From contig JAHWKR010000003.1 in assembly GCA_019347805.1 (NCBI GenBank), positions 1 through 64,000 of the forward strand: a stretch of DNA of 64,000 nt, in the 5' to 3' direction. The position numbers and the translations under genes are program-made. Position 1 is the first letter of the stretch; each line of letters begins with the position of its first letter. Positions 480 to 17,192 of this stretch are shown piece by piece. Below the pieces are notes generated by a model that made no database searches, had not been told where the DNA came from, and was given only the letters and a program-made list of their open reading frames with translations. This stretch comes from Methanobacteriota archaeon. GTDB taxonomy: Archaea > Thermoplasmatota > E2 > JACPAO01 > JAHWKR01.

Positions 480-1607
480 TCAGATCTTCTTCTTCGTCAC
501 GATGGTCAACACGTCCTGGTCTTCCAAGACGTGGTCCAAAGAGACATGCTGTCCGTCGAACTTGGCGCTCTTGCCCCACACCTGCGCATAGCGGAACAAC
601 TTACGGAACTCGCGGTGCAGGTGGTCGCAGACGTCGCCGACGGTGGAACCGCGCGTGATGACCAGGGGTTCCTCGTAATCGGTCTCGCCTTTGTGCGGGC
701 GGAGGTAGACGCGGATGAAGTCGAGGATCTCGAAGGCGGTGTCCTTGAGGAGGTCCATGTTCATGCCGGTGATGGCGGAGATAGGGACGACGCGGAAGCC
801 CTGCGCGGAGAGTTCCTTGACGTTCTCTTGCAGGTCCTCTTCGGGCAATAGGTCTGACTTGGTGAGCGCGATGAAGCCGCGCGTGTAGACGCGGTTGCCC
901 GCCAGCTTGTCGATGAGCTGGTCGATGGTGATGTCTTCCCGGATGACGATGTTGGCATTGACGACCTTGAACTCGCGGCAGATGTCCTCGATGTAGTCGT
1001 CGTCCATGTTGGTCAGTTCGACCGTCTTGTTGATCTTGAGGCCGCCGCGGTCCGATTTGACGATCTGGATGTCGGCCGGTTTCTGGTTGAGCCGGATGCC
1101 GGCGTCGTAGATCTCGCGCAGGACCACTTCGAGTTCGTTGGGGGAATAGGCGTTGACGGTGATGAAGATGAGGTCGGAACTGCGCGCCGCCGCCAAGACC
1201 TCCTTGCCGCGCCCTTTCCCCGATGCGGCACCCTTGATGATGCCGGGCATGTCAAGGATCTGGATGTTGGCGCCCTTGTACTCCATCGAGCCGGGGATGA
1301 CGTCCAGCGTCGTGAAGGCATAGGCGCCGACCTCCGACTCGGTGCCGGTGAGCTTGTTCATGAGGGTCGATTTACCGACCGAGGGCAACCCGACGAGCCC
1401 GACCGTGGCGTTGCCCGATTTCTTCACCGCGAAGGACTTGCCGCCCCCGCCGCCGCCCATGAGGCGCTGTTTTTCCTGTTCTTGCCGGAGCTTGGCGATC
1501 TTGGCCTTGAGCTTCCCGATGTGGAACTCGGTGGCCTTGTTCTTCTGCGTCTTGAGGATCTCTTCCTCGATCTCCTTGATCTGCTCCGCGATGGTCGCCA
1601 TGGGCAT
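480..1607 (-). CDS. DRG/Rbg1-family GTPase (OBG-HflX superfamily, C-terminal TGS domain)
   Basis: ORF 480..2000(-). The conserved protein begins at internal ATG (cat at 1605-1607): MPMATIAEQIKEIEEEIL...GGGGGGKSF..VGLVGLPSVGKSTLMNKLTG (G1/Walker A), DMPGII (G3), TKSD (G4), C-terminal TGS-like ...DVLTIVTKKKI. This is the archaeal/eukaryal DRG architecture; the 131-aa N-terminal extension in the ORF track is Arg/Pro-rich and overlaps the divergent upstream region. Confidence 0.9.
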   Translation of the reverse strand: MPMATIAEQIKEIEEEILKTQKNKATEFHIGKLKAKIAKLRQEQEKQRLMGGGGGGKSFAVKKSGNATVGLVGLPSVGKSTLMNKLTGTESEVGAYAFTTLDVIPGSMEYKGANIQILDMPGIIKGAASGKGRGKEVLAAARSSDLIFITVNAYSPNELEVVLREIYDAGIRLNQKPADIQIVKSDRGGLKINKTVELTNMDDDYIEDICREFKVVNANIVIREDITIDQLIDKLAGNRVYTRGFIALTKSDLLPEEDLQENVKELSAQGFRVVPISAITGMNMDLLKDTAFEILDFIRVYLRPHKGETDYEEPLVITRGSTVGDVCDHLHREFRKLFRYAQVWGKSAKFDGQHVSLDHVLEDQDVLTIVTKKKI

Positions 1608-1776
1608 CGTGTCCGTACGGACAGGCGGCGGACGGCGGGCGGACGGGTATAAACCCTTCGCGCATAGGCCGCTCCGGCTTCCCTTCCGGGGACCGGCTGA
1701 AATAGGCCGCCGTCGCGGCCGACCCGAGGCGCACTTCGCCCCCACGCTTTTCACGGCGTGCTCGCTCGGCCGCCCC

Positions 1777-3330
1777 GTGGAAGCCGAAGCGCCGGACGGC
1801 ACCGCATCCGCAGGTGTCCTGAGCGGGGCGCCCGCGGTCCGGGCCGAGCGGCTGTCGTTCGGTCCGTCGGGCGGTTCGGGTCCGGTGCCGATCGACCGGT
1901 TGTCCTTCACCGTCGAACCAGGCGAGACGCTCCTCGTCGCAGGGCCTTCGGGGACCGGCAAGAGCATGCTGTTGTCACTCGTCGCCGGGCTCGGGTCCAC
2001 CTATTCCGACCCGCAAGTCGGTGGGCACCTTGTCGTCGCATGGCCGGAAGGTGTCGACCCCGGGCCACTGCCCCGGCCGCGGCCGGGCCGTGTCGGGTTC
2101 CTGCAGCAGGAACCGGGGGACGGTCTTCTCGGTGTCGACCTCCTTTCGGCGCTCGCGTTGCCGCTCGAACTCCTCGGCCTGGGCCGTGACGAGACCGCCG
2201 ACCGGGTCGGACATGCGCTCGAGACGTCCGGTCTCATGGAGATGGCCGAGCGCGAGGTGTCGACGCTCTCGGTCGGAGAACGCAAACGCGCCGCGCTCGC
2301 CGGCATCGAGGCGCTCGACCCTCCCCTTGTGCTCTTGGACGAGCCGCTCGCCGACCTTGACCCGCCCGGCGTGCGGCACCTCCTCGACGACCTTGCGCGC
2401 ATCCACACAGCGCGCACGGTCCTCGTCGCCGAGCACCGCATCGGCCCGCTGCGCGCCCTCGCCGACCGGGAACTCCATCTTGTCCCGAGCGCCGCCAGAC
2501 CTCCTCCACGTATCTGGACCCCTGCCATCGCCCGCGGCCCCGGCGGCGCGGAACCGGCCGTGGTCGCCAACAGCCTCAGTATCGACCGCGGCGGACGGCG
2601 GCTCATCGATGATGCGACGTTCCGGCTTGGGCCGGGTGTGTGGGGACTCCTCGGCCGCAACGGTGCGGGCAAGAGCACCCTGCTTTCGGTGCTCGCCGGT
2701 CTCGTCGCACCGACCTCCGGAGCGGTGACGGTCGCCGGCCGGCCCGTCTGGTCGAGGGGCCTCCGCGTGTCGCGGCGCGAGACGCACGAGGTCGGCCTGC
2801 GGCGGACGTTGCAGGTCTGTTTCCAGGAACCACGCGAGGCGTTCTTCGCCGCGTCGGTGAAGGAGGAGCTCACGGCCCCCATCGAACGGCTCGGACTGCT
2901 GCTCGGCCATCGTGCCCGCAGCAAGGTCGAGAACGGATTGGAGCAAGCAGGATTGACTCATCTTGCCGAGGTGTCGCCGCAACGACTCTCGGGCGGCGAG
3001 GCGCGACGGGTGCAGACCTTGGGCGCCCTCCTCGTCTCCCCGTCGGTGCTCTTCCTGGATGAGCCGACGCACGGATTGGACCCGGTGGCGCGGGACGCCT
3101 TGCGGGCGAACATCGCGGCGTTCGGCCGCGCGGGCGGCGTCGTCATCGTCGCCACGCATGAACCCGCTTTCCTCCCCGCGGGTGCGGAGTGGATCCATCT
3201 GCCGGGCGACGGGCGGGTCATGGTCGGCGACGCGGCACGACCGGGCGAACCGGGACCCGCCAAGGACGGCTACGTCGTCCCGGATCCGCTCGCCCCGGAG
3301 ACCACCGCCCTCCCGGAAGTGCGGCCGTGA
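1777..3330 (+). CDS. ECF-type transporter ATPase, duplicated ABC domains (EcfA1-EcfA2 fusion, CbiO-like)
   Basis: Two Walker A motifs (GPSGTGKS, GRNGAGKS), two signature motifs (LSVGERKRAAL, LSGGEARRVQ), two Walker B motifs (LLDEPLADLD, LFLDEPTHGLD). Start is uncertain: there is no in-frame ATG after the divergent DRG gene, so GTG at 1777 is proposed. The ORF-track start at 1342 lies inside the DRG gene. Confidence 0.8.
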   Translation: MEAEAPDGTASAGVLSGAPAVRAERLSFGPSGGSGPVPIDRLSFTVEPGETLLVAGPSGTGKSMLLSLVAGLGSTYSDPQVGGHLVVAWPEGVDPGPLPRPRPGRVGFLQQEPGDGLLGVDLLSALALPLELLGLGRDETADRVGHALETSGLMEMAEREVSTLSVGERKRAALAGIEALDPPLVLLDEPLADLDPPGVRHLLDDLARIHTARTVLVAEHRIGPLRALADRELHLVPSAARPPPRIWTPAIARGPGGAEPAVVANSLSIDRGGRRLIDDATFRLGPGVWGLLGRNGAGKSTLLSVLAGLVAPTSGAVTVAGRPVWSRGLRVSRRETHEVGLRRTLQVCFQEPREAFFAASVKEELTAPIERLGLLLGHRARSKVENGLEQAGLTHLAEVSPQRLSGGEARRVQTLGALLVSPSVLFLDEPTHGLDPVARDALRANIAAFGRAGGVVIVATHEPAFLPAGAEWIHLPGDGRVMVGDAARPGEPGPAKDGYVVPDPLAPETTALPEVRP

Positions 3331-4013
3331 CCGGTCCCCACGCAGCCCCTTACCACACGCCGACGGTCTTCCCGCGCATCCTCTTGGCCGCGGCCGCGAC
3401 GCTCGTCGCCCTCATCGGCCCGGCCTGGGGCGTGGCGGTGGTCGCGGCGGCGGCCGGTATCGGGCTCGTCCGAAGCGGTGCCCACGCGACGGCGCGGACG
3501 ACCGGTTGGATGGTCTTGGGGCTCGTCGCGGCGACCATCGTCTTCCAGGCGGCGATCCTCGTGCCGTTCGTCGGCCTCGGTTGGTTGGAGGCCCTCGGGG
3601 TCGGTGCGGCCTTCTCGGCGCGGCTCGGCACGGTCCTTCTTGTCACCTCGCTGCTCGCGGTCGCGTTGCCGCCGCGCGCTTGGCTCGCCTCGCTGGCGCG
3701 CTTCCCCCGTCTGGGGCTTCTCTTCACCCTGGTCTTCCGTCAGGTGCCCGACATGGCCGCCGAGGCCGAGCGGGTGCGGCGCGCGCAGCGGGCACGCGGC
3801 CTGCTCATCGGGCGTCTGGTGCCGGCCCTCGCCACGGTCGTGCCTGTGATGTCGCGCACGCTCGAGCGGGCCGACCGCATGGGCCGGGTGCTCCTCCTTG
3901 CCGGCTGGGGACGACCCAGAAGAGAACCGCTCGTCCGCCCGCGCTTCCACGTGGTGGACATCGTCTGGATGGGGCTCGCCGTCGCCCTCCTCGCCGGCCT
4001 TTTCCTGTTCTGA
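3327..4013 (+). CDS. ECF transporter transmembrane (T) component, EcfT/CbiQ family
   Basis: Multi-pass membrane protein directly downstream of the ATPase. GTG at 3327 overlaps the ATPase stop (GTGA), consistent with translational coupling. Arg-rich loop ...RVRRAQRARGL... is typical of CbiQ/EcfT. Confidence 0.7.
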   Translation: MTGPHAAPYHTPTVFPRILLAAAATLVALIGPAWGVAVVAAAAGIGLVRSGAHATARTTGWMVLGLVAATIVFQAAILVPFVGLGWLEALGVGAAFSARLGTVLLVTSLLAVALPPRAWLASLARFPRLGLLFTLVFRQVPDMAAEAERVRRAQRARGLLIGRLVPALATVVPVMSRTLERADRMGRVLLLAGWGRPRREPLVRPRFHVVDIVWMGLAVALLAGLFLF

Positions 4014-4082
4014 CCCCCACATCTCAAGCCGACTTGATTCTCTTCAAACAAACTTGAAGACCCCTCGCCCTCTGCCACCGCC

Positions 4083-4808
4083 ATGGCCCCCCTTCGGCCC
4101 CTTGCGTCCCCCCCGCTCCGGGACGACCCGAGGCGCCTCACGCTCATCGCGGCCTTCACCGCGCTCGCCATCGCCGGCCGTATCGCCTTCCTCTGGGCCC
4201 CCAACATCGCCCTCACCTATTACGTGGTCTTCTTCGCCGGGGTCGTCCTCTGCACCCGCGCCGGGGCCCTCGTCGGACTCCTCGCCATGACGGTGACCAA
4301 CCTCATGCTCTCCGGCCTCCACCCGGTGCTCTTCGCGAACGCCCCCGCCATGGCGCTACTCGGCGTCGCCGGTGGTCTCCTCCGACCGCTCTTCGTCCGC
4401 CCGGCAAAAGACCGCACCGGAAAGGCGCTCCGCGTCACCGTGCTCGCCTGCGTCGGCCTCTGGGGCACCCTGCTCTTCTCCCTCACCACAGACCTGCTTG
4501 GCTATGCCCTGCAATATGGCGCTACCCCCGAAGGACGCGCGATCGGCACCGCCGCCCTCGTCCCCTACCTGGTCGCGGGGCTTCTCTTCAACCTCGTCCC
4601 TGCCGTCGTGAACGCCCTCCTCTTCGCCACCCTCACGCCCTCGCTCCTCGATGTCCTCAGACGCGCCGGCCACCTCGGCCCCGTGCCCGCCACCGACACC
4701 CGCACCGTCCTCGTCGAATCCTCCCCGGGTCGCCACACCCGTCTGGTCGACCACCAGCCATATGAGGAGCCGCCTGTCTCGCCCGCCCGTGGCCCTGCCG
4801 CCCCATGA
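4083..4808 (+). CDS. integral membrane protein, putative ECF transporter substrate-capture (S) component
   Basis: ATG at 4083; about 6 predicted TM helices in 241 aa, 70 bp downstream of EcfT in A-T-S order. The family assignment rests on context only. Confidence 0.45.
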   Translation: MAPLRPLASPPLRDDPRRLTLIAAFTALAIAGRIAFLWAPNIALTYYVVFFAGVVLCTRAGALVGLLAMTVTNLMLSGLHPVLFANAPAMALLGVAGGLLRPLFVRPAKDRTGKALRVTVLACVGLWGTLLFSLTTDLLGYALQYGATPEGRAIGTAALVPYLVAGLLFNLVPAVVNALLFATLTPSLLDVLRRAGHLGPVPATDTRTVLVESSPGRHTRLVDHQPYEEPPVSPARGPAAP

Positions 4809-5955
4809 CCGGCTCCTGCTTCGTTACGGCGAGGTCGGGCTGAAGAGCCGCGCGGTGCGCGTCCGCATGGAGAAGACCCTGCAGCGGCAGCTCGAGGACG
4901 CCCTTCTGCGCGAACGCTCGGAAGGCCTCGTGCGGCGCGGACAAGGACGGCTCTTCATCGAGACCGGCGACATCGCCACCGCCTCGAAGATCGCGGAGCA
5001 CACCTTCGGCATCACGACGTTCAGCCCGTGCGTGCGCATCCCGACCGATTACGATCTCATTCTCAAGACCGCGGGCGAATACGCCGCCGAACATTGGCCC
5101 GAGGGGGCGAAGCGGTTCGCACTCCGTCCGCGAAGAAGCGGCACCCATCCCTTCACCAGCCAGGACGTCGCCATCAATGCCGGCTCGGCGGTCTATGTCG
5201 CCGCGAAAAACAAGGGCGTCGATGTCTCGGTCGACCTCGACAAGTCCGAATGGGAGCTTTTCATCGAGGTGCGCGAACGGGACACCTACCTCTACCACGA
5301 ACGCGTCCCCGGCCCCGGTGGCCTGCCCATGGGCACGCAGGGCCGCATGGTGGTGCTCCTCGATTCCGCCGACGCCGCGGCGGCCGCCTACCTCATGATG
5401 CGGCGTGGTGCGGCGATGCATCCCATCTATTTCCCGCAGATCGTCGGCACGAAGGCGCGGCTGGACGCCCCGAAGAGCGTCGATGACGACGACCATCCGG
5501 CGCTCCACCTCCATCGCGCGTTGCGCGAATGGAACGCACCCGCCTTCATCAAGCAGTGGTGGCTGGACGACGAGACCGTCGAGAGCATCACCGGCGACCC
5601 TGTGCCGGACGATGGCGTCCCGCTCATCCGCACCATGCTCGCCGCCGCTTCGGCCCATGCCCATCGCGTCGGCGCGCAGGCCATCATGACCGGCGAGACG
5701 GCAAGAAGTCCGTGGGCGCCGCGTCTTCCCGAAACGGTAGGCGCGGCAGACCTTCCGATCCTGCGACCGGTGATGGGGTTGACCCGCCCGGTCATCGACG
5801 ACTTCCGTGAGATCCTCGACCTGCCACGGCTCTCCGGAACGAGAGAACGGGAAGAGGAACGTGCTTACACGGCAGGGGGACGACGCGAGGCGCGTTCGCG
5901 CAAGCGCGACGAGACCGTCAGGCCCGTGGAGGGGACGGCTTGGGACCCGTGGTGA
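4762..5955 (+). CDS. ThiI-like THUMP-domain protein (tRNA 4-thiouridine synthase paralog) with degenerate PP-loop
   Basis: N-terminal ferredoxin-like plus THUMP region (LLLRYGEVGLKSRAVR..., RFALRPRRSGTHPFTSQDVAINAGSAVY). Where ThiI carries the PP-loop LLSGGIDSPVAAYLMMKRG, this protein has VVLLDSADAAAAAYLMMRRG, so the SGGxDS ATP-binding loop is lost. Start is ATG at 4762 or GTG at 4789; either overlaps the upstream stop. Confidence 0.65.
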   Translation: MRSRLSRPPVALPPHDRLLLRYGEVGLKSRAVRVRMEKTLQRQLEDALLRERSEGLVRRGQGRLFIETGDIATASKIAEHTFGITTFSPCVRIPTDYDLILKTAGEYAAEHWPEGAKRFALRPRRSGTHPFTSQDVAINAGSAVYVAAKNKGVDVSVDLDKSEWELFIEVRERDTYLYHERVPGPGGLPMGTQGRMVVLLDSADAAAAAYLMMRRGAAMHPIYFPQIVGTKARLDAPKSVDDDDHPALHLHRALREWNAPAFIKQWWLDDETVESITGDPVPDDGVPLIRTMLAAASAHAHRVGAQAIMTGETARSPWAPRLPETVGAADLPILRPVMGLTRPVIDDFREILDLPRLSGTREREEERAYTAGGRREARSRKRDETVRPVEGTAWDPW

Positions 5956-6890
5956 TCGTCGGCGCGGGGGCCATCGGCCTCTGGTCGGCGGCCCGGCTCG
6001 CACCGGTCACCGAGGTGTGGCTCTTGACGCGGCCCTCGCGCCTGCTCGGACTCGAAGGTGGCATCCGGCTCGAGACGCTCCCGGACGCCGACCCGGACGG
6101 GCAAGGCGGCGACACGACGGTCCCCCCGGAGCGCTTCCGAGCGGTCGGTGACCCCGCCGACCTTCCCACCGAACCGGATCTCATCCTGGTGGCGACCCGC
6201 GCCTATCAGACCCGCGATGCCGTCGAGGCGCTCAAGGAGGCCGGCATCCGGCCCCGCATCGCCATGACCCTGCAGAACGGCCTCGGCAACGCCGAGGCGC
6301 TCGCCGCCGCCTTCGGCGCCGAACGTGTCGTGGTGGGGACGACCACGCATGGAGTGACCCTCCTGGGACCGGACCATGCCCGGCATGCCGGAGCGGGCGA
6401 CACCCGGGTCGGCCCGTGGGTCCCGGCGGCGGCCGAGGCCACCAGGAAGATCGCCGCTCTCCTCGACGCGGCCGGCGTCCCCACCGAGGTCGTCGACGAC
6501 CCGCGTCGCATGCTTTGGCTCAAGGTGGCGGTGAACGCCGCCATTAACCCCCCGACCGCCATCCATCGCATCGAGAACGGGGTCCTCCTGGACGGTGGCC
6601 CTTTGGAGGCGGACCTGCGTGCTGCCGCCCGTGAAGTGGCCGACGTGGCACAGGCCGAAGGGGTGGACCTCGCCCCGGAAGAGGCCGAAGCGGCGGCCGT
6701 CTCAGTGGCGCGCCGCACGGCGCGCAACCGCTCGAGCATGCTGCAGGCCTTGCTCGCCGGACGGCCGCTCGAGACCGATGCGATCACCGGCGAGGTGGTC
6801 CGGCGCGCGGCCCGGCATGGCATCGATGTACCCATCAATCGGCGCCTCCTCAGCGAGCTTGAGATGTCGATGCGAAGCCGTGGCCATTGA
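5940..6890 (+). CDS. panE: 2-dehydropantoate 2-reductase (ketopantoate reductase, PanE/ApbA family)
   Basis: N-terminal Rossmann motif VVIVGAGAIGLW and C-terminal ApbA domain (...LWLKVAVNAAINPPTAI..SSMLQAL..GRPLETDAITG). The start overlaps the ThiI-like stop. Confidence 0.8.
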   Translation: MGPVVIVGAGAIGLWSAARLAPVTEVWLLTRPSRLLGLEGGIRLETLPDADPDGQGGDTTVPPERFRAVGDPADLPTEPDLILVATRAYQTRDAVEALKEAGIRPRIAMTLQNGLGNAEALAAAFGAERVVVGTTTHGVTLLGPDHARHAGAGDTRVGPWVPAAAEATRKIAALLDAAGVPTEVVDDPRRMLWLKVAVNAAINPPTAIHRIENGVLLDGGPLEADLRAAAREVADVAQAEGVDLAPEEAEAAAVSVARRTARNRSSMLQALLAGRPLETDAITGEVVRRAARHGIDVPINRRLLSELEMSMRSRGH

Positions 6891-7909: not shown

Positions 7910-8509
7910 CTATCGCGACGCCGCGCTCTTCTTCGGCCGCAGCTCGGGCCCCCAGCGCGTAAAAAGGTCGTGCGCGACGTCGAGCTGGTCGAGCGCCTTC
8001 CCGACCACATGGTCGACGAGGTCCTCGATGGTGCTCGGCCGATGATAGAACCCGGGCATCGCCGGGACGAGGCGCGCCCCCGCTTCCTTGAGCGTCGCCC
8101 AATTGCGCAGCGTGATGAGGTCGAGCGGCGTCTCGCGCGGCACGATCACCAGGCGGCGTGATTCCTTGAGGCAGACGATCGCCGAACGGGTCAGCAGGCT
8201 GTCTGCGTAGCCATGGGCGATGGCCGCGGTGGTCTTCAAGGACGCCGGGACGATAAGCATCCCGTCATGCCGGAACGAACCGGAGGCGGGCCAACCGGCC
8301 GTGTCGCTCTCCGCATGCAGGACGACGTCTCCTGCGACCTGTTCGACGCGCCCGTCGAGGTCGAGGGCCATCTCGTGCCGCGCCACATGGCGCGCGCCGT
8401 CGGAGACGATGAGATGGATCGTGTGGCCCGCCTGGGCCAGCACCTCGAGGGCACGCACGCCGTAGAGGACCCCGGAGGCACCGGAGATCCCGAGCACATA
8501 GACACCCAT
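7910..8509 (-). CDS. ubiX: flavin prenyltransferase UbiX/Pad1 family (MqnL-like)
   Basis: MGVYVLGISGASGVLYG...LIVSDGAR...MLIVPASLKTTAAIAHGYADSLLTRS...VIVPRETP. Start ATG at 8509 overlaps the UbiA stop (ATGA). The ORF-track N-terminal extension is a spurious Arg-rich read-through. Confidence 0.85.
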   Translation of the reverse strand: MGVYVLGISGASGVLYGVRALEVLAQAGHTIHLIVSDGARHVARHEMALDLDGRVEQVAGDVVLHAESDTAGWPASGSFRHDGMLIVPASLKTTAAIAHGYADSLLTRSAIVCLKESRRLVIVPRETPLDLITLRNWATLKEAGARLVPAMPGFYHRPSTIEDLVDHVVGKALDQLDVAHDLFTRWGPELRPKKSAASR

Positions 8510-9369
8510 CACAACACCCCCCACTCGCTCGCCGCGGCGACGGCCGCGAGGAGCACGAAGCCGGTGTAGCCGTTGAACGTGAAGGCGGCGCGGTTCACCG
8601 AAGCGGGATCGGTCGGCACCAGGGTGGCATGCTCGTAGAGGAGCAGAAGGCTGACCCCGGCGAGGCCGACCCAATACCAGGCGCCGAGCCCGGCGATGAA
8701 ACCGACCGCCGCGAAACAGCCGGCGGTGGCGATGTGGAAAAGCGACGAGACGACGAGCGCGGTCCGTTCGCCGAGGTCGGCGGGGATGCTGTGGACGCCG
8801 TTCGCGCGGTCGAAAGGGACGTCGAGGAGCGCGTAGATGATATCGAACCCGGCGACCCAGAACATGACGCCGAAAGCCAGCAACAAAGGCACCGTCATCT
8901 CGACCCACCCACCCGTCACGGCAAGCCACGCGCCGACCGGCGCGATGCCGAGCGAGACACCGAGGACGATGTGGCAGGCCCAGGTGAACCGCTTGGTGTA
9001 GGGGTAGAGCAGGAAGACCGCGAGCGGGATGGGCGACAGACGGAACACGTAGGGATTGATGAGGTGGGTGCTCGTGAAATAGAGCAGGGCGAAACCGACC
9101 GTGAGACCCCAGGCGACGGCCAATCCCAATCGCCCGGATGGCAGTTCGCGTCCTGCGGTGCGCGGGTTGCGCGCGTCGATCGCGCGGTCGACGATGCGGT
9201 TGAGGCTCATCGCCGTCCCGCGGGCGCCGACCGCCGTGAGGGTCACAAGGAGCGCGAGCGACCAGGTCGCCTGCCCCGGGGCGAGCAGGATGCCGATGTA
9301 GACGAACGGGAGCGCGAAGACCGAGTGCTCGACGCGGATGTAGCGCAGGACGTCACGCAGGGTCGCCAT
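8509..9369 (-). CDS. UbiA-family aromatic prenyltransferase (4-hydroxybenzoate polyprenyltransferase / MqnP-like)
   Basis: About 9 TM helices. UbiA motifs: NRIVDRAIDARNPRTAGRELPSG (first Asp-rich motif) and a second motif near DVPFDRANGVHS. Confidence 0.85.
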   Translation of the reverse strand: MATLRDVLRYIRVEHSVFALPFVYIGILLAPGQATWSLALLVTLTAVGARGTAMSLNRIVDRAIDARNPRTAGRELPSGRLGLAVAWGLTVGFALLYFTSTHLINPYVFRLSPIPLAVFLLYPYTKRFTWACHIVLGVSLGIAPVGAWLAVTGGWVEMTVPLLLAFGVMFWVAGFDIIYALLDVPFDRANGVHSIPADLGERTALVVSSLFHIATAGCFAAVGFIAGLGAWYWVGLAGVSLLLLYEHATLVPTDPASVNRAAFTFNGYTGFVLLAAVAAASEWGVL

Positions 9370-9424: not shown

Positions 9425-10648
9425 CTATTCCGTGCCGGTCTCGCTCTCCTGGGTGGGCAGGTCCTTGGCGGTCAGCTCGTACTGGACCTCCTTGATGGCC
9501 GTGAGGACCGCCACGACGCCTCCGAAGAAAGCTGCCGGGGCGACCGTGATCTTCCACTCGCCGGGCACGGCTGGCTCATCGTAGAAGTTGATCGTGTAGA
9601 GGGCCGGATCGAATCCACCCGCGTCCCGACAATAGGCCGGGTCGTCGTGGGCGTGGCTGTAGTCGGTCTTCTTGTTGGCCGGGTCGATGAGACTCACGTG
9701 CGACTGACCGCCGCAGGCGACCGGCACGATGACGCCTTTCAGGTAGGTGGCGTCCTCGGGGACGGTGAATTGGCGCACCGGCGGCGTCGGTGTCACGACG
9801 TTCTGTTGGAAGGCCGCCTGGAAGATGAAACCGGTCGGGAAGAGCTCCGCCTCCACCCCGCCGACCGACTCGTCGACGTAGTAGGGGCCGACATACCCGC
9901 TCGACCGGCCCATGCTCATGGCATGGAAGATGACGTCCTCGGAGACGTCCGTCGTCAGGTCGTAGATCCAGAAGTGGCTGAACCAGCCCACCGCGGGGAC
10001 GTAGTTGTAGCGCAGGAGTTCTTCCCCTTCCGCGGTGACACCGGTGATGACAAAACCGGGGAAATCCCCTTTCTCTGTATCGATCTTCGACGCGTAGGCC
10101 GCCGTCAGCGTGAATTCGTAGTTGAGGATGCCGTTGTCGTTCCAGTTGAAGAGGAAATCGAGCTTGCCGTCCCAGGTCTTCCCGTCGGTGAGGGGGAAGT
10201 CGTACATCCAGTCCCAGTCGGTATCGAACGCCGAGGTCTGCAGATGCTCCTTCTCGATACAGCCGAGGATGGGCAGGTCGAAGACCACCTCGAACTTGGC
10301 GGCGTTCTGGCTCGTCGTGGCGACCGTGTAGCAATCGCCGCCGTCATCGACGACCATGGTGACGATGTGCTCGCCGTTCTGATCGGCGTTGCCGTAGTAG
10401 ATGTGCTGCTCGAAGACGTCACCGACCTCCCATGTCGGGGCAGGGAGTTCGTCCTCGGCGGTCAGGTCGGTACGGAGGTCACGGCCGGTCTCATCGAGGA
10501 CCGCCTTGGCGCCGCAGACATCGGTGGCGACGCACTTGTCGGCCTGGGCCTTCACCTCGTCCATCGGCGCGTCCTCTTCACCGACGCAGCCGGAGAGGGC
10601 GACAAGGGCCAGGACGAGGACGGCCAAGAGAGGGCGCACGCGGGACAT
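9425..10648 (-). CDS. secreted lipoprotein, hypothetical
   Basis: Internal start MSRVRPLLAVLVLALVALSGC (lipobox LSGC) at ATG 10648. Mature protein is acidic and Asp/Trp/Tyr-rich with two Cys pairs. Confidence 0.55.
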   Translation of the reverse strand: MSRVRPLLAVLVLALVALSGCVGEEDAPMDEVKAQADKCVATDVCGAKAVLDETGRDLRTDLTAEDELPAPTWEVGDVFEQHIYYGNADQNGEHIVTMVVDDGGDCYTVATTSQNAAKFEVVFDLPILGCIEKEHLQTSAFDTDWDWMYDFPLTDGKTWDGKLDFLFNWNDNGILNYEFTLTAAYASKIDTEKGDFPGFVITGVTAEGEELLRYNYVPAVGWFSHFWIYDLTTDVSEDVIFHAMSMGRSSGYVGPYYVDESVGGVEAELFPTGFIFQAAFQQNVVTPTPPVRQFTVPEDATYLKGVIVPVACGGQSHVSLIDPANKKTDYSHAHDDPAYCRDAGGFDPALYTINFYDEPAVPGEWKITVAPAAFFGGVVAVLTAIKEVQYELTAKDLPTQESETGTE

Positions 10649-11064
10649 AGGGCGCGAAGGGAGGACGGTAGGAGAAAAGCGTTGTGCCTGGACAGAAGTA
10701 CAGGGCAGCGGGTCTGCGGGAGGTGAATGGATGGCGCCCATGCTCGGGACGAACGGTTCAGAGGTCATTGCCGTCGTGGGTCTCTGCCGGCCAAAGTCAG
10801 GTCCATAAGGGCGCGCCAGAGAGGACTGAACGTCTTCCCGCACCTCGTCGCCGACCGACACCAGGGACGCGATGCTTCCGGACTCCCATTACCATCGGCC
10901 GTGCGTGGACTCCCGCGACCAGTCTGCGGAGCGACGCTGCAAAGGTTTTTGAATAGCTGAGAACACCAGGGTGCGCCGATAGTCCACCCGGGTGGTCGCA
11001 TGGTGTGCACGTTCAGACGCAAGGCCATAGAGGTCGTTCCGGACAGGTCGCCGGGGGTCGTCTG

Positions 11065-12660
11065 ATGCCGCCCATCACCTCTAGGGGGTCTCTGACCGTC
11101 TGCGGCATCGTCCTTGTGATGCTCATCGCCGGTTGCACATCGCCCGCGGCCAAGCCCTCTGCACCACCCGGTCAGGACGCGCCTCTCGATTGGGTCGAGC
11201 GCGCCCTTCCTAACGGCGACAACCACGATCACCTCGACCACACGCATCACGTCGGTCTCTCGACACCCAACTTCGAGATCCTCGGCTGGGATCCTCTCCT
11301 CACCGATCACATGAGCGCCCAGGCGGGCGGATACGAGTGCGGCGACCTGGCGACGAAGGACGGTCGCACGCTCGCGGTGGTGCATTCTTTCACCAGCGAC
11401 GTCGCTTTCGTGCTCATGGATGTGACAGAGCCGACCAAGCCCGAAAAGATCGGTGAGCTCGTCATGGAGAACACGCATGTCTACGATGTCGTGATGACGC
11501 CAGACCAGAAGTACGTCCTCCTCGCGACGAGCCCCCTGGGCCAAGTGGACGACGGCACCCTATTCCGTAGGCCGATCGAGACGGGGTACACCGCGCGTGC
11601 TTCTTTCGTTGACGCGTGCACGGGAACCACCCGCCCCGTCGGCGGCCCGGCGGCCGCCCTGCCGTACCACTCTGGTGTGGTCCTCGTCGACATCAGCGAT
11701 CCGGGGACACCCGCCATCACGGACTTCCGGCCGCTCCCCCTCCTGGGCGGCCACAGCATCGTCGTCCGGGATTTGGGCGGCGAAACGATCGCGCTTGTCT
11801 CGGTCTCGAGCGGGGATCCGGTGACGAACTACTACGCCTTCCTCGGCATCCAGGCCACAGCGCTCGGTGATCGGCTGGAGACCTACTCGATCTACGAGAC
11901 CGACCCTGTGGTCGAACCCTTGGACGGCATCCCCTATGTCACCGGCAGGCCCTATGGCCACGAGGGATCCCTGCACGTCCATCCGGGGACCGGCGGTCAC
12001 ATCGCATACCTGGCCGACGGCACGTACGGGGTCACGCTCCTCGACATCACAGATCCGCGCGAACCCCATGCCATCGGCCACTGGAACGACGCTACCGAGA
12101 TTGCGAACCCGGACCCCTCGGAACACTTCGCCCACACAGTCCTCCCCATCGACACCCTGTGGGACGGCCGCCATTACTCGTTCGTGAGCGAGGAATGCAC
12201 CGCCAGGCCCTCCGAGACGCCCTCGTGCCTGGTCTACGTGCTCGATACGACGGACCCCGCCGCTCCAAAGCTCACGGGCGCGTGGACGCTCCCCACCGAG
12301 GTCGGCGGCTGGACATGGCCCACGTTCAGCCCGCACTACATGGCGGTCATCGACCGCACGCTCTTCGTCGCGCACTTCCACGCCGGCCTCTGGGCGTTCG
12401 ACGTGTCGAGCGCGGAAGCCATCGCCGACCTTACTCCCGTGGGCGTCTTCCTCCCCGAGCATGACACCGGCTACGAGCCTTCCGGGCGGTTGTTCGAGGA
12501 GGTCAACCAGCGCCCGCTCGTTGCTGACGTGCTCCCGTACGGTGAGAACCTCGTCACCTTCGATGCCACATCAGGTGTCTATGTCCTCCGCTTCGACCCC
12601 ACGAGGCCCGCGCCCGCTCCGGAGCCGTGGCCGCTGAGGATTCCCGACGCCAGAACATAA
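11065..12660 (+). CDS. LVIVD-repeat beta-propeller lipoprotein (paralog 1)
   Basis: Signal plus lipobox MLIAGC. Repeated blades of the form ...VxLVDISDPxxP..., VTLLDITDPREP, VYVLDTTDPAAP, GVYVLRFDP are characteristic of LVIVD repeats. Start ATG at 11065. Confidence 0.6.
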   Translation: MPPITSRGSLTVCGIVLVMLIAGCTSPAAKPSAPPGQDAPLDWVERALPNGDNHDHLDHTHHVGLSTPNFEILGWDPLLTDHMSAQAGGYECGDLATKDGRTLAVVHSFTSDVAFVLMDVTEPTKPEKIGELVMENTHVYDVVMTPDQKYVLLATSPLGQVDDGTLFRRPIETGYTARASFVDACTGTTRPVGGPAAALPYHSGVVLVDISDPGTPAITDFRPLPLLGGHSIVVRDLGGETIALVSVSSGDPVTNYYAFLGIQATALGDRLETYSIYETDPVVEPLDGIPYVTGRPYGHEGSLHVHPGTGGHIAYLADGTYGVTLLDITDPREPHAIGHWNDATEIANPDPSEHFAHTVLPIDTLWDGRHYSFVSEECTARPSETPSCLVYVLDTTDPAAPKLTGAWTLPTEVGGWTWPTFSPHYMAVIDRTLFVAHFHAGLWAFDVSSAEAIADLTPVGVFLPEHDTGYEPSGRLFEEVNQRPLVADVLPYGENLVTFDATSGVYVLRFDPTRPAPAPEPWPLRIPDART

Positions 12661-12682
12661 CGGACCGATCGGAGGACCTTGC

Positions 12683-14092
12683 ATGAACACGGCACGCCAA
12701 CTCCTGACCATCCTCATCCTCGGCGTGCTCTTCGCCGGCTGCCTATCTCCGGACAACACTCCACCTGACGACGACCCGGAACCGGCCGTCGACCCCCTCG
12801 ACCTCCTCGAATCCGCCTTGGCCGACGGGCATGACCACAGCGAGGTCGCGCTCCATCCGGAGGTCGCTTCCGGCTTCGAGGAAGTGACCCGCCTCTCGCT
12901 TGACGGAGACGGCGCGCAGCGGGTCCCGATCCTTGAGATGGACGCGACGCCAGGATTGGCGTTCGTGGCGACGCAGCGACCACATCCCGGATTCATCGTG
13001 CTCGACACCTCTTCACCGCGGGACCCGGAACAGATCGGCCGCTATTCGGCCGGCACCCCTTACGTCGCCGACGTGAAGACGACCCCCGACGGCCGATGGG
13101 TGTTCGTGGCGACCCAGCCGGAGACACTCTTCGCGACCGTGTTCGGCAAGCCCGGTGCCCCGACCCCGACGCCTGGAGAACCGGCGCCCTACGCGGGCGA
13201 TGTGGGCATCCACATCGTGGATACGAGCGACCCGACGGCGCCGAGCTTCGCCGGTCTATACGCGGGCGACGCGACCGGGTACCACATGCTGACCCTGACC
13301 GAGATCAGCGGTGCGACCTATGTCATGGGCACGACGTTGTTCGCGGGACACGTGGACATCCTCCGGTTCGAGACCACGCCAACGCCCCATCTGGTCCCGG
13401 TGTCGACGTTCCATCCGGCCGTCCATGACGCCGCCCTGACCGCCGAGAGCGCCGGACGCTCCTATATTCCGGAAGCCCATGATATGACCGTGGCGCCCGA
13501 CCCGCTGGAGGGGTTCCCCCTTTTGTCTGTGGCCCATGGTTCGTTCGGGCTGTTCTTCCTGGACCTAAGCGATCCGTCGGCGCCACGATATCTCGGTGGC
13601 TGGAACGACGGCCCGGGTGGCCCGTACGGCATCATGTTCGCCCATACCGTCCGCGTCGTGGAGGTCGAAGGGACGCGCGTCGCCTTCGTGGCCTCCGAGG
13701 CCCTGTCGCACGACAGACAAGCGCCGGCCTGGGTCGTGGACGTCACCGAATTCAATGCGCCCAAGCTGCTCCACACGTGGACGCTCCCGGGTGAGCACCC
13801 CATCACGGAACATTACCTCTACAGCACCCACAACATAGAGATCGTCGACGGTCGCGTGTACATGGCACATTACCATGCGGGCCTCCTGGTACTGGACATC
13901 TCGACGCGGGAGCGGGCCGCGGCGCCGGTCCTGGAGGCGTTCATCGTCCCCGGCGGCGTCGAGACCGTCCCGTTCTTCGCCATCGACTACAGTCCGATGG
14001 TGTTCGATGTCTTCCCGGTCGGGGACGTGTTCTACGTCACCGATGTCACAGGTGGGCTACGGGTCGTGGCTCGGACGGAGGCGGTGGGGTGA
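12683..14092 (+). CDS. LVIVD-repeat beta-propeller lipoprotein (paralog 2)
   Basis: Lipobox LFAGC. Repeats IVLDTSSPRDP, HIVDTSDPTAP, FFLDLSDPSAP, LVLDISTRE. Lies 23 bp downstream of paralog 1. Confidence 0.6.
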   Translation: MNTARQLLTILILGVLFAGCLSPDNTPPDDDPEPAVDPLDLLESALADGHDHSEVALHPEVASGFEEVTRLSLDGDGAQRVPILEMDATPGLAFVATQRPHPGFIVLDTSSPRDPEQIGRYSAGTPYVADVKTTPDGRWVFVATQPETLFATVFGKPGAPTPTPGEPAPYAGDVGIHIVDTSDPTAPSFAGLYAGDATGYHMLTLTEISGATYVMGTTLFAGHVDILRFETTPTPHLVPVSTFHPAVHDAALTAESAGRSYIPEAHDMTVAPDPLEGFPLLSVAHGSFGLFFLDLSDPSAPRYLGGWNDGPGGPYGIMFAHTVRVVEVEGTRVAFVASEALSHDRQAPAWVVDVTEFNAPKLLHTWTLPGEHPITEHYLYSTHNIEIVDGRVYMAHYHAGLLVLDISTRERAAAPVLEAFIVPGGVETVPFFAIDYSPMVFDVFPVGDVFYVTDVTGGLRVVARTEAVG

Positions 14093-15594
14093 TCGGCAGC
14101 CACTCCTCACCCCACCTCCTCATCTGCTTGCTCATGCTTGTCGTCGCCTTGGCGGGTTGCAATGCACCTGCGGAGAAACGGGACGCACCCGAAGTACCTG
14201 ACAAGGTCCTGCCTCCCGGCTGCGATCCTGAACACGCGGCGGTCCCGCACCTCGCGGACGGTCGCGTCGCGACCTCCGAGGTCGTCGTCATCCCATGCCT
14301 CCTCCGGCTCGGCGCGCGCTCCTTCGAGCCAACGATCGGCATCGCCTCCGATGGTTCGGTCTTCGTCTACCCGGTGCGGCATCCCTTCCCGGGCGAGACC
14401 GCACGCATGGCCCGAAGCACCGACGAAGGCGCGACATGGGAGATCCTGACCCCCAACACCAACGAAATTCCGACCCATCCGTACTCACTCGACCCATATC
14501 TCTACCTCGACCCGACGACGGATCGTATCTTCGCTGACGACCTGATGATGGCGCCTCCGACGTGCGGGATGATGTCCATATCCGACGACGACGGAACCAC
14601 CTGGAAGCATGGCCCGTCAGGCTGTGCGATCACCGACCACGTCACGATCTTCGCCGGTGTACCGACCGTGTCCACGACCTCTGACTATCCGAACGTCGTC
14701 TACCGCTGCGGGAACTCCGGCGGCGGATTGAACCGGTACTCGACGATGGTGTCCTGTCAACGCTCCCTCGACGGCGGCACGACCTGGATGCCGCCAGGTG
14801 AACCTGTTTTCACTTTCGGACCGGGATTGACGGGCAGGCTTCCGGAGGCTTCACCGATCGCTTCGTGCACAGGCGGCATCGGCCACGGTGCGACCGGCGC
14901 CTCCGGCACCGTGTTCATCCCGCGTGGTCACTGCGGCCAGCCTTGGCTCGCCATCTCGGACGACGAGGGCGCCACTTGGGAGCGCGTCCAGGTCTCCGAG
15001 CTCGGCTCGAGATGCACCCCGTTCGAAGGGCCCGGTGGTGATTGCGACCACGATGCCGCGGTCGCGGTAGATGCGGCAGGGAACGTCTTCTTCGCCTGGA
15101 TCACGGCCGAACGCTGGCTCGCCCTCACGCACTCGACAGACGGAGGCCATACTTGGAGCCCGGCTCAAAACATCACCGCACCCGGCGTGGAGGAAGCGGC
15201 CTTCGTCGAGCTTGCAGCAGGGACCGGCGGAAGGATCGCTGTCGCGTACCTCGGCACGGCCGACAGCCCACGACCGGACTTCGAACTTGACGCGTACGCC
15301 ACGACGGCATGGGACGGCTACCTCGCACTCAGCCACGACGCTCTGGCGGAAGTCCCTCTCTTCCACTCGGCGCGCCTCAACCCCATCGATGACCCGCTCA
15401 TCCGGGGTGACTGTGGACCAGGAGCTTGCGGCCGGCTCGGCGACTTCATCGACATCCGGATCGCGCCCGACGGCGCCCCTTGGGCGCCCTTCGTGGACGC
15501 TTGTTTCGAGGAATGCCGCGCCGGTGGGCCGCAGGACGGGAACGAGGGGCTCGTCGGGAGGTTGTGGGGTGGGCCAAGCCTCCGGCGGGTGTAG
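14089..15594 (+). CDS. BNR/Asp-box repeat lipoprotein (sialidase-fold beta-propeller)
   Basis: GTG start overlaps the upstream stop (GTGA). Lipobox ALAGC. Five Asp-box motifs SxDxGxTW: STDEGATW, SDDDGTTW, SLDGGTTW, SDDEGATW, STDGGHTW. Confidence 0.6.
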   Translation: MIGSHSSPHLLICLLMLVVALAGCNAPAEKRDAPEVPDKVLPPGCDPEHAAVPHLADGRVATSEVVVIPCLLRLGARSFEPTIGIASDGSVFVYPVRHPFPGETARMARSTDEGATWEILTPNTNEIPTHPYSLDPYLYLDPTTDRIFADDLMMAPPTCGMMSISDDDGTTWKHGPSGCAITDHVTIFAGVPTVSTTSDYPNVVYRCGNSGGGLNRYSTMVSCQRSLDGGTTWMPPGEPVFTFGPGLTGRLPEASPIASCTGGIGHGATGASGTVFIPRGHCGQPWLAISDDEGATWERVQVSELGSRCTPFEGPGGDCDHDAAVAVDAAGNVFFAWITAERWLALTHSTDGGHTWSPAQNITAPGVEEAAFVELAAGTGGRIAVAYLGTADSPRPDFELDAYATTAWDGYLALSHDALAEVPLFHSARLNPIDDPLIRGDCGPGACGRLGDFIDIRIAPDGAPWAPFVDACFEECRAGGPQDGNEGLVGRLWGGPSLRRV

Positions 15595-15698: not shown

Positions 15699-17192
15699 TT
15701 ACGGCCAGAACTTGCTCTTCTTCTCGGGGTATGCCCCCAACCCGAAGTCCTGCCACCGCGCCTTCACCTTCTCCCGTGTGCCGTCGTCCATGGCGATGAC
15801 ATCGGGCCATGGGCGTGGATGCCCTTCCTCGGGCCATTTGGTGGTGGCGTCGATGCCGATCTTCCCGCCGACGCGGTGCAACGGAGAGGCGTGTTCCAGG
15901 TCGTCGACGGGGAAGCCGTCCAAGAGGACGACGTCGCGGGCGGGGTCGTAGCAGTGCGAGGCCACCCACATGACCATCGACGGGTCGTGCACGTCGACCC
16001 AGTCGTCGACGACGACGATCATCTTGGTGAACATCATCTGGCCGGTGCCCCAGATGCTCTGCATGATCTTCTTCGCCTGCCCGGGGTAGCGTTTCTTGAT
16101 GCTGATGATCATGAGGTTGTGGAAGCCGCCCTCGATGGGCATGTTCATGTCCACGACCTCGGGTTGGGTGAACTTGAGAAGCGGCAGGAAGAGGCGTTCG
16201 ATGGATTTGCCCCACCAGGCGTCCTCTTGCGGCGGGACGCCCACGATCGTGGTGGGATAGATCGGGTCGTTCCGCATCGTCACGGCGGAGCAGTGGAAGA
16301 CGGGATATTCGTCGGCCAATGAATAGTATCCCGTGTGGTCGCCGAACGGACCCTCGGTGCGCAGCTCGCCGGGGATGACGTGGCCTTCAAGCACGATCTC
16401 GGCGTCGGCGGGGACCTCGAGCGGCACCGTCTTGCATTTGACGAGCGGCAACCGTTTCTTCCTCAGGAAGCCGGCGAAGATGTATTCGTCCAATCCCTCC
16501 GGCAGGGGGCATCCGGCCGCGAACATCGTGGCGGGGTCGCCGCCGAACGCCACCGCGACCGGCAAGGGCTTCACGTCTTTGCCGGCCTGGGCGGCCTCCC
16601 AAAGATGCTTGGCGCCGCCCTTGTGGAGGTGCCAGTGCATGCCGGTGGTTTTCTTGTCGTAGACCTGCATGCGGTAGAGTCCCACGTTGCGGTCGCCGCT
16701 TTTCGGGTCTCGGGTGACCACTTGCGGGAGCGTGATGAAGCGTCCGGCGTCCTGCGGCCAGCACTTCAACACCGGGAGTCGGGTGAGGTCGACGTCGTCG
16801 CCTTCCAGGACCACTTCCTGGCACGATGCCTTGCGCACCGTCTTGGGGGGGAACGACAGCACCTCCTTGACGACGGCGAGTTTCCCGACCGCCTCCTTGA
16901 AAGACTTGGGCGGCTTGGTCTTGACGAGCGAGACGAGATGCTCGCCGATGCCCTCGATGTCCTCCGTCCCCAAAGCCAGCTGCATGCGCTTCGGCGAACC
17001 GAACGTGTTGATGAGGACGGGGATCTCCGAGCCCCTGACGTTCTCGAAAAGCAGCGCCGGCCCGCGCGCCTTGGTCACGCGGTCGGTGATCTCGGCGATC
17101 TCCAACACCGGGTCGACCTCCGCCTGGACGCGGACGAGCTCACCGTTCTCTTCGAGGACGCGGATGAAATCCCGGAGGTCCGAATAGGCCAT
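15699..17192 (-). CDS. ubiD: UbiD-family decarboxylase (prFMN-dependent; MqnM/UbiD-like)
   Basis: 497 aa, ATG at 17192: MAYSDLRDFIRVLEENGELVRV...GPALLFENVRGS...NVGLYRMQV...GGKIGIDAT. Full-length UbiD architecture. Confidence 0.9.
   Translation of the reverse strand: MAYSDLRDFIRVLEENGELVRVQAEVDPVLEIAEITDRVTKARGPALLFENVRGSEIPVLINTFGSPKRMQLALGTEDIEGIGEHLVSLVKTKPPKSFKEAVGKLAVVKEVLSFPPKTVRKASCQEVVLEGDDVDLTRLPVLKCWPQDAGRFITLPQVVTRDPKSGDRNVGLYRMQVYDKKTTGMHWHLHKGGAKHLWEAAQAGKDVKPLPVAVAFGGDPATMFAAGCPLPEGLDEYIFAGFLRKKRLPLVKCKTVPLEVPADAEIVLEGHVIPGELRTEGPFGDHTGYYSLADEYPVFHCSAVTMRNDPIYPTTIVGVPPQEDAWWGKSIERLFLPLLKFTQPEVVDMNMPIEGGFHNLMIISIKKRYPGQAKKIMQSIWGTGQMMFTKMIVVVDDWVDVHDPSMVMWVASHCYDPARDVVLLDGFPVDDLEHASPLHRVGGKIGIDATTKWPEEGHPRPWPDVIAMDDGTREKVKARWQDFGLGAYPEKKSKFWP

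Follow-up and report, generated by a model that had tools for sequence, protein, structure and literature searches.

The window analysed here is a stretch of 64,000 nucleotides from a Methanobacteriota archaeon (GTDB Thermoplasmatota; GenBank assembly GCA_019347805.1, contig JAHWKR010000003.1, positions 1 to 64,000 of the forward strand), and our subject is a plus-strand gene within it that encodes a ThiI-like protein of the PH1313 type and runs directly into a gene for a ketopantoate reductase (KPR) of the PanE/ApbA family. The ThiI-like gene lies in an open reading frame (ORF) at 4651..5955 (+) and, if read from the ATG at 4762, occupies 4762..5955 (+) and yields a protein of 397 amino acids (aa). 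GTG 4789 is an equally plausible start according to the N-termini of relatives, because the relative P0003 begins there with M-DLPRHD. The assignment draws on domain matches, on an AF2 model and on the best fold match, PDB entry 1VBK, which is the structure of PH1313 from Pyrococcus horikoshii. The panE gene follows at 5940..6890 (+) and is the conserved downstream partner of the ThiI-like gene.

[quoted passage not shown] The third domain (residues 195-350, 5344..5811 (+)) is a degenerate Rossmann-like fold, formerly a pyrophosphatase, in which the PP-loop has become DSADAA (residues 201-206, 5362..5379 (+)), one residue shorter than the SGGxDS of ThiI. This domain keeps the TGE and LPILRP motifs, has lost GQVxSQT, DK and the counterpart of Cys344, and contains a clade-specific insertion at about residues 231-284. 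A C-terminal tail (residues 351-397, 5812..5952 (+)), partly disordered at 372-387, closes the protein with a clade-conserved WDPW end. Pfam recognizes the first two domains above cut-off (ThiI_fer at residues 18-88 with 44 bits, PF22025; THUMP at residues 95-179 with 36 bits, PF02926) and the ThiI catalytic domain weakly (residues 191-342, 31 bits), and against TIGR00342, the NCBIfam equivalog for ThiI, the protein scores 113.5 bits versus a cut-off of 264.5. The AF2 model is confident, with a mean pLDDT of 87.8 and a pTM of 0.85.

A preliminary description of this DNA, made from the letters alone, had proposed that the PP-loop SGGxDS is replaced by DSADAA and that the gene encodes a catalytically dead or repurposed paralogue of ThiI. 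We mapped the active-site residues by alignment to Thermotoga maritima ThiI (Tm ThiI; PDB 4KR6), with residue roles taken from PMC4041423, and the replacement was confirmed: S182 corresponds to D201, G183 to S202, I185 to A203, D186 to D204 and S187 to A205, while G184 is deleted, leaving the Asp as the sole PP-loop residue retained. The other contacts to the ATP phosphates are also replaced (R264 by I, N288 by T, Q291 by S and Q295 by P). Cys344 has no equivalent; the one cysteine of the protein sits in the THUMP domain, and the third domain has none that could carry a persulfide or serve as a ligand of an Fe-S cluster. The alignment against ThiI orthologs that had been suggested as a check was made column by column between 49 canonical ThiI and 59 PP-loop-less proteins, and showed the same losses throughout the PP-loop-less group, namely SGGxDSPV, K/R-R..M, GQVxSQT..N, DK, the Cys and P..T. 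Loss of the PP-loop, the phosphate contacts and the cysteines would preclude adenylation or thiolation of U8 by the ThiI mechanism, and judged by these residues it is close to certain that ThiI chemistry is impossible for this protein. Among the five features by which ThiI/TtuI is defined, only the NFLD with THUMP is present, the PP-loop, the second set of phosphate contacts and the Cys being absent and the TIGR00342 score too low; on this sequence profile the protein falls outside the ThiI/TtuI definition and should not carry that name.

The missing PP-loop might in principle stem from an error of sequencing or assembly, or the gene might be a decaying, non-functional copy, and the one weak point in this respect is that the source is a metagenome-assembled genome. 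This explanation is already refuted. The loop is matched at 100% identity by P0002, a fragment from an independent Logan assembly, and the eight closest relatives, at 51-59% identity, share the sequence LD[ST]xDA[AV]AAAYLMMRRGA at this site. The ORF is intact and has a GC3 of 0.82, like that of the neighbouring genes; the predicted fold is confident, conservation is high domain by domain, and the family is large. Among 107 homologues, the approximately 50 closest all lack SGGxDS and the more distant canonical ThiI carry it, and a profile search of 1.84 billion cluster representatives returned 6937 matches; among the best 149 of these (representatives at 50% identity) the loop is missing from 117 and present in 13, with 19 unscorable by pattern. 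Sequencing error, named in the preliminary description as what would overturn its reading, can thus be set aside, since an independent assembly reads the same at this site and the whole family has lost the loop. By the same token the loss is not the peculiarity of one gene that had been supposed, but rather the defining trait of a large and known family (PH1313/1VBK, public since 2005). A tblastn search of the 64-kb window for a second ThiI, with nine canonical and ThiI-like queries, matched only the ThiI-like gene.

In three further ThiI homologues, P0042 and two from Aenigmatarchaeota metagenome-assembled genomes (L033, L062), the PP-loop is half degenerate (NGDCNS, SGSVDA), and a neighbour-joining (NJ) tree groups them with canonical ThiI. 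They could represent loop loss at an intermediate stage or variants of the ATP site.

The losses are confined to one side of the protein. Every NFLD and THUMP position that is conserved in canonical ThiI is equally conserved in the loop-less group of the 49 versus 59 comparison, in agreement with the good conservation of both domains noted beforehand. The shared positions are R21, E24, K28, R33, L40, R63, F82, G83, S88, F119, R124, R125, S133, G141, V157, D158, L159 and R171, and the GGxPxG..G linker is likewise common to both groups. In Tm ThiI, RNA is contacted by R10, K17, R21 and R46, together with a CCA-binding strand and helix (PMC4041423); several of the conserved NFLD residues (among R21, E24, K28, R33 and R63) correspond to these four, and the retained positions include those that in true ThiI contact the 3'-CCA end of tRNA and the region around U8. 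THUMP domains consistently bind the CCA end of tRNA (PMC4041423, PMC12255305). The conservation of these residues and the consistent behaviour of THUMP domains suggest that the ThiI-like protein would still bind the acceptor end of tRNA, that is, the CCA end and the acceptor stem. With the catalytic signatures lost and the NFLD/THUMP signatures kept, the earlier proposal of a dead or repurposed ThiI paralogue appears sound, and the protein is probably still RNA-binding.

The third domain, though stripped of its chemistry, is not decaying. Within the clade of the window its mean pairwise identity is 0.66-0.73, versus 0.56 for the RNA-binding domains, which indicates that it is still under selection. 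The protein could also have remained an enzyme, its remodelled third-domain pocket binding another ligand and carrying out new chemistry on tRNA or on a small molecule, and in one version of this idea it fills a gap in the coenzyme A (CoA) synthesis of Thermoplasmatales, from which pantoate kinase (PoK) as well as phosphopantothenate synthetase (PPS) is absent and for which further analogous enzymes have been predicted (PMC6650551). Residues L199, L200, I222, Y223, F224, R290, M292, G311 and E312 align with the adenine and ribose contacts of Tm ThiI, a clade-specific acidic motif (LDSADA) stands in place of the PP-loop, conservation within the clade is highest in the third domain, and a KPR gene lies next door, all of which would fit such an enzyme. 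However, different sub-clades have different sequences in place of the PP-loop (DSADA, KDLHS, SDPAS, ENPSS), which speaks against a new active site shared by all. Only five positions have been specifically gained in the loop-less group relative to ThiI, four of them in the RNA-binding half and only one, G339, in the third domain, and a fully conserved RNA-binding surface would go unexplained in an enzyme acting on a small molecule. We consider new chemistry improbable and the weaker of the two rivals that deserve weighing. The picture that emerges from the conservation pattern is that of a pseudoenzyme that has retained substrate binding and in which the former catalytic domain would serve a structural or docking role.

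What such a pseudoenzyme might serve is suggested by the gene that follows it. The downstream partner looks like an ordinary KPR: the PanE of the window scores 232 bits against TIGR00745 (cut-off 141) and matches PDB 3HWR at 7e-33 and the T. kodakarensis KPR, 5HWS, at 3e-26. Invariant in 14 PanE partners are LQNG, WxK..N...N, SSM.Q and the Glu of a TE(I/V)D-type motif, which we take to correspond to N98, K176, N180, S244 and E256 of the Escherichia coli enzyme. We counted panE linkage on the contigs of relatives and on 80 loci from a scan of species-representative genomes; the scan loci are mostly Methanobrevibacter canonical ThiI and were used as the negative set, and the counts are samples rather than a census. 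Among the matches listed, a PanE-family gene lies directly downstream in 16 of 35 distinct loop-less loci (19 are without) and occurs anywhere in the fetched flanks in 0 of 57 canonical ThiI loci, a difference for which Fisher's test gives p = 1.3e-8, with loci that are phylogenetically related and not independent.

The two genes are joined in the window at a coupling junction (5928..5955 (+)) made up of an SD-like GGAGG at 5928-5932, the ThiI-like stop codon TGA at 5953-5955 and three candidate panE starts, TTG 5940, GTG 5949 and GTG 5952. The last of these overlaps the stop codon (GTGA), and TTG 5940 is better spaced from the GGAGG. A 4-nt overlap of stop and start (ATGA, GTGA or TTGA) is found in 10 of the 16 distinct linked loci, and the other six junctions, including the best-spaced start of the window, vary between an overlap of 46 nt and a gap of 10 nt. 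The last codons of the ThiI-like tail thus overlap the ribosome-binding site and start codon of panE. Bases 5928-5955 encode the clade-conserved WDP[W/Y] end as well as the GGAGG and candidate starts, and since the same bases carry the panE signals, conservation of WDP[W/Y] may reflect dual coding rather than a protein motif.

Beyond the junction itself, the pair of ThiI-like and PanE genes persists down to approximately 30% protein identity while all other neighbours change. All-against-all clustering of ORFs recovered these two as the only real gene families common to at least 14 of 15 linked loci, and yielded no third conserved neighbour in the 15, the other recurrent clusters being opposite-strand shadow ORFs of the two genes. 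In a rough NJ tree without support values, there are at least two deep groups of linked loci, with an unlinked clade of short proteins bracketed between them. The link to panE, guessed at from adjacency in the preliminary description, has therefore proved stronger than was supposed, with a conserved and translationally coupled pair in 16 distinct loci among the matches listed, and by the gene orders compared here it is real. We found no literature that pairs THUMP with ketopantoate reductase, and this coupling may be a new observation.

A second kind of coupled partner came to light among the Thermococcales, whose members of the family were found with the PH1313 sequence taken from the alignment. 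Palaeococcus ferrophilus and a lineage related to it carry, next after the PH1313-type gene, a gene for a stand-alone protein of 188-201 residues (pairs at L094:6001-7517 and L095:4001-5541); the two genes are 15 nt apart at one of these loci and overlap by 4 nt at the other. By its motifs (LSGGIDS, GQVASQT, DK and the Cys), this stand-alone protein would be a complete and live ThiI catalytic domain, and it scores 254.8 bits against NF006222/PRK08349, a family named 'hypothetical protein' (cut-off 251). PMC4041423 describes a ThiI dimer in which one subunit grips the RNA with its NFLD and THUMP and the catalytic domain of the other modifies it. Because the ThiI dimer works across subunits in this way, the Palaeococcus-type pair reads as a split ThiI, and its sequences suggest that the dead subunit presents the tRNA and the live subunit does the chemistry. 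No stand-alone PP-loop gene was found in the 64-kb window or in any fetched Thermoplasmatota-type locus. This coupling, too, may be a new observation.

Records P0257-P0263 from Pyrococcus and Thermococcus are named 'tRNA 4-thiouridine(8) synthase ThiI' or 'thiamine biosynthesis protein ThiI'. Both of the Thermococcales members scanned (P0262 and P0272) lie well below the TIGR00342 cut-off and PH1313 itself lacks the PP-loop, and ThiI names on PH1313-type records from this order are probably over-annotation.

Given this combination of losses, retained positions and gene order, we propose that the ThiI-like protein is a non-catalytic, PH1313-type pseudoenzyme that binds the acceptor end of tRNA and serves a partner enzyme, for which the coupled KPR is the prime candidate, and we give this reading a probability of roughly 0.55. 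In such a scheme, the protein would act as a subunit or adaptor for an enzyme working in trans, by analogy with the ThiI subunit that holds the tRNA for its counterpart. As its stop and the panE start overlap, it would be made in fixed proportion with the KPR-family enzyme in the lineage of the window, which would make that reductase the foremost candidate; the evidence for this choice of partner is gene order. A bolder extension, which we regard as unlikely, is a stoichiometric complex of the KPR-family reductase with the dead ThiI paralogue, through which tRNA would be tied to a reaction dependent on NADPH. The pair could then gate the synthesis of pantoate and CoA by the state of the tRNA 3' end, or the THUMP module could bring the reductase to tRNA to install a hitherto unassigned modification near positions 8/9.

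Several observations weigh against the adaptor proposal. There is no biochemical rationale that links tRNA binding to ketopantoate reduction, and the activity of PH1313 itself is unconfirmed according to a review of THUMP proteins (PMC9957541). The dimer-interface loop that true ThiI uses is degenerate in the PP-loop-less group. The short (~285 aa) sister clade and the PH1313-type gene of Pyrococcus furiosus have neither a PanE nor a PP-loop protein next door. No THUMP-PanE fusion occurs in the best 150 ThiI-like representatives (the longest has 469 aa), and no THUMP domain among the 120 closest PanE homologues. Beyond the clade, the nearest named homologues of PanE come from haloarchaea, and of the 35 loop-less loci among the matches listed none is attributed to a haloarchaeon, with no search having been aimed at haloarchaea; if haloarchaea do lack the ThiI-like gene, then the protein is not a general KPR subunit. 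Finally, overlapping genes are hard to separate by rearrangement, and their adjacency could persist for this reason without any shared function.

This last point opens the way to the main rival explanation, in which a dead ThiI paralogue and panE have unrelated jobs and are kept together only by their overlap. A panE start that arose inside the ThiI-like stop region would have made the translation of panE depend on the upstream gene, and selection would then have preserved the pair. The ThiI-like protein would act without a partner, perhaps as a chaperone of tRNA, or would cooperate with a ThiI-type enzyme whose gene lies at another site. The shortness of the junction overlap, the lack of fusions and the haloarchaeal homologues of PanE just described would all fit such an accident of gene order, as would the KPR partners, which retain all residues expected of an ordinary KPR, and the Thermococcales, in which the partner is a live PP-loop protein instead. 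On the other side stands the survival of the pair to about 30% protein identity amid neighbours that all change. A pairing conserved in changing surroundings is usually seen only for functionally linked genes. We judge an accident of this kind a real contender that is nonetheless distinctly less probable than a tRNA-binding pseudoenzyme in the service of a partner.

PH1313-type proteins are widespread in archaea and have had a crystal structure since 2005, and they are nevertheless an orphan family. A loss of chemistry that runs through the family while the tRNA-binding half is kept argues against the name ThiI, and this matters where the capacity for 4-thiouridine (s4U) is inferred from genomes. 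The two operon couplings name candidate partners, a KPR in the Thermoplasmatota-type loci and a stand-alone PP-loop protein in Palaeococcus-type Thermococcales. If the coupling with KPR reflects a complex, tRNA would be connected to the synthesis of a CoA precursor.

On its upstream side, the ThiI-like gene is preceded by genes of an energy-coupling factor (ECF)-type transporter (1342..4808 (+)), which are neighbours only and lie outside the conserved unit. They comprise a fused A1A2 ATPase (1342-3330 (+)), a CbiQ-type T component (3189-4013 (+)) and an S-like membrane ORF (4083-4808 (+)) whose match to Pfam ECF_trnsprt is below threshold (28.6 versus 30.7 bits). This S-like ORF also matches DUF6580, and its overlap with the ThiI-like ORF is 47 nt long with ATG 4762 as the start of the latter and 20 nt long with GTG 4789. 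The whole arrangement of ECF genes, ThiI-like gene and panE recurs in L001, which at 58% identity is the nearest relative with a readable upstream side, and there an additional ORF of 185 aa stands between the S-like and ThiI-like genes. In another relative, L002, the contig starts only approximately 350 nt upstream of the ThiI-like gene and that side is unreadable. The more distant panE-linked loci L003, L005 and L088 have entirely different upstream genes and no ECF genes. We therefore rejected a functional link to the transporter, which the preliminary description had offered as context for the gene: the ECF genes adjoin it only in the window and in the close relative L001, and by these comparisons the adjacency is local synteny. 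Since it is local, it gives no handle on the identity of the S component, contrary to what had been hoped, and nothing ties the ThiI-like protein to thiamin, the other cofactor link that had been considered.

Other neighbourhoods were seen among the relatives. The PanE-free genes of the short clade at L006, L007 and L092 are convergent with the gene for ribosomal protein L15e and lie near that for a YchF-type GTPase; L092 also has a phosphopantothenate synthetase (PPS_PS) gene approximately 5 kb from its short ThiI-like gene. In L001 and L002, the genes for a UbiX flavoprotein, a UbiA prenyltransferase and a UbiD decarboxylase adjoin one another. The Ubi genes of the window lie at 7913-9369 (-) and 15702-17192 (-), and the interval between them (9428-15591) holds four genes, between UbiA and UbiD, whose products are apparently secreted or lipoprotein-like, one with LVIVD repeats and one with BNR repeats.

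Among known systems, PH1313 is the nearest. It is the best match of the protein by sequence among solved structures (1VBK, E 8e-26) and also by Foldseek (E 8e-26, TM(target) 0.83), where it ranks above the ThiI structures 2C5S and 4KR7. Hori's 2023 review of THUMP proteins lists PH1313 as a "ThiI-like protein" in which several conserved ThiI residues are missing (PMC9957541). Both proteins have the three-domain architecture of ThiI without the PP-loop, PH1313 reading LHDELSA at the SGGxDS site, and by sequence and predicted model the protein of the window falls within the architectural definition of PH1313-type ThiI-like proteins. The kind of protein is thus already known, with the structure public since 2005, and the gene described here adds a new member. 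The two differ in several respects, however: their structure-based identity is only 22%; PH1313, at 307 aa, lacks both the insertion at residues 231-284 and the 47-residue tail; and the Thermococcales relatives of PH1313 that were examined do not adjoin panE, unlike the gene of the window. In the rough NJ tree, again without support values, a clade of Thermococcales, Methanofastidiosia and Woesearchaeota is separate from the Thermoplasmatota-type clade to which the window belongs, and the PP-loop may have been lost more than once.

Canonical ThiI/TtuI (TIGR00342; 2C5S, 4KR6/4KR7) shares with the protein the NFLD, THUMP and GGLPxGTQG linker, the AAW/YLMMRRG helix, the TGE and LRP motifs and all of the RNA-contact positions, whereas the PP-loop, the Arg and Gln/Asn phosphate contacts, DK and the catalytic Cys are found in ThiI only, and the protein scores less than half of the family cut-off. 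The Palaeococcus-type pair resembles that of the window in that a dead ThiI-like gene is coupled to a second gene, and differs in the partner, which is a KPR-family reductase in the window and a live ThiI catalytic domain in the Palaeococcus-type loci. TrmTS (TK1257), a new THUMP enzyme, was also checked and is unrelated (PMC12255305). For function, the closest precedent would be a THUMP adaptor such as Tan1/THUMPD1, which, as cited in PMC12255305, serves the tRNA acetyltransferase Kre33/NAT10. Tan1 lacks the ThiI-type third domain and works with an acetyltransferase, and the comparison is an analogy of mechanism only, in which a non-catalytic THUMP protein presents tRNA to a separate enzyme, as we propose the ThiI-like protein of the window may do.

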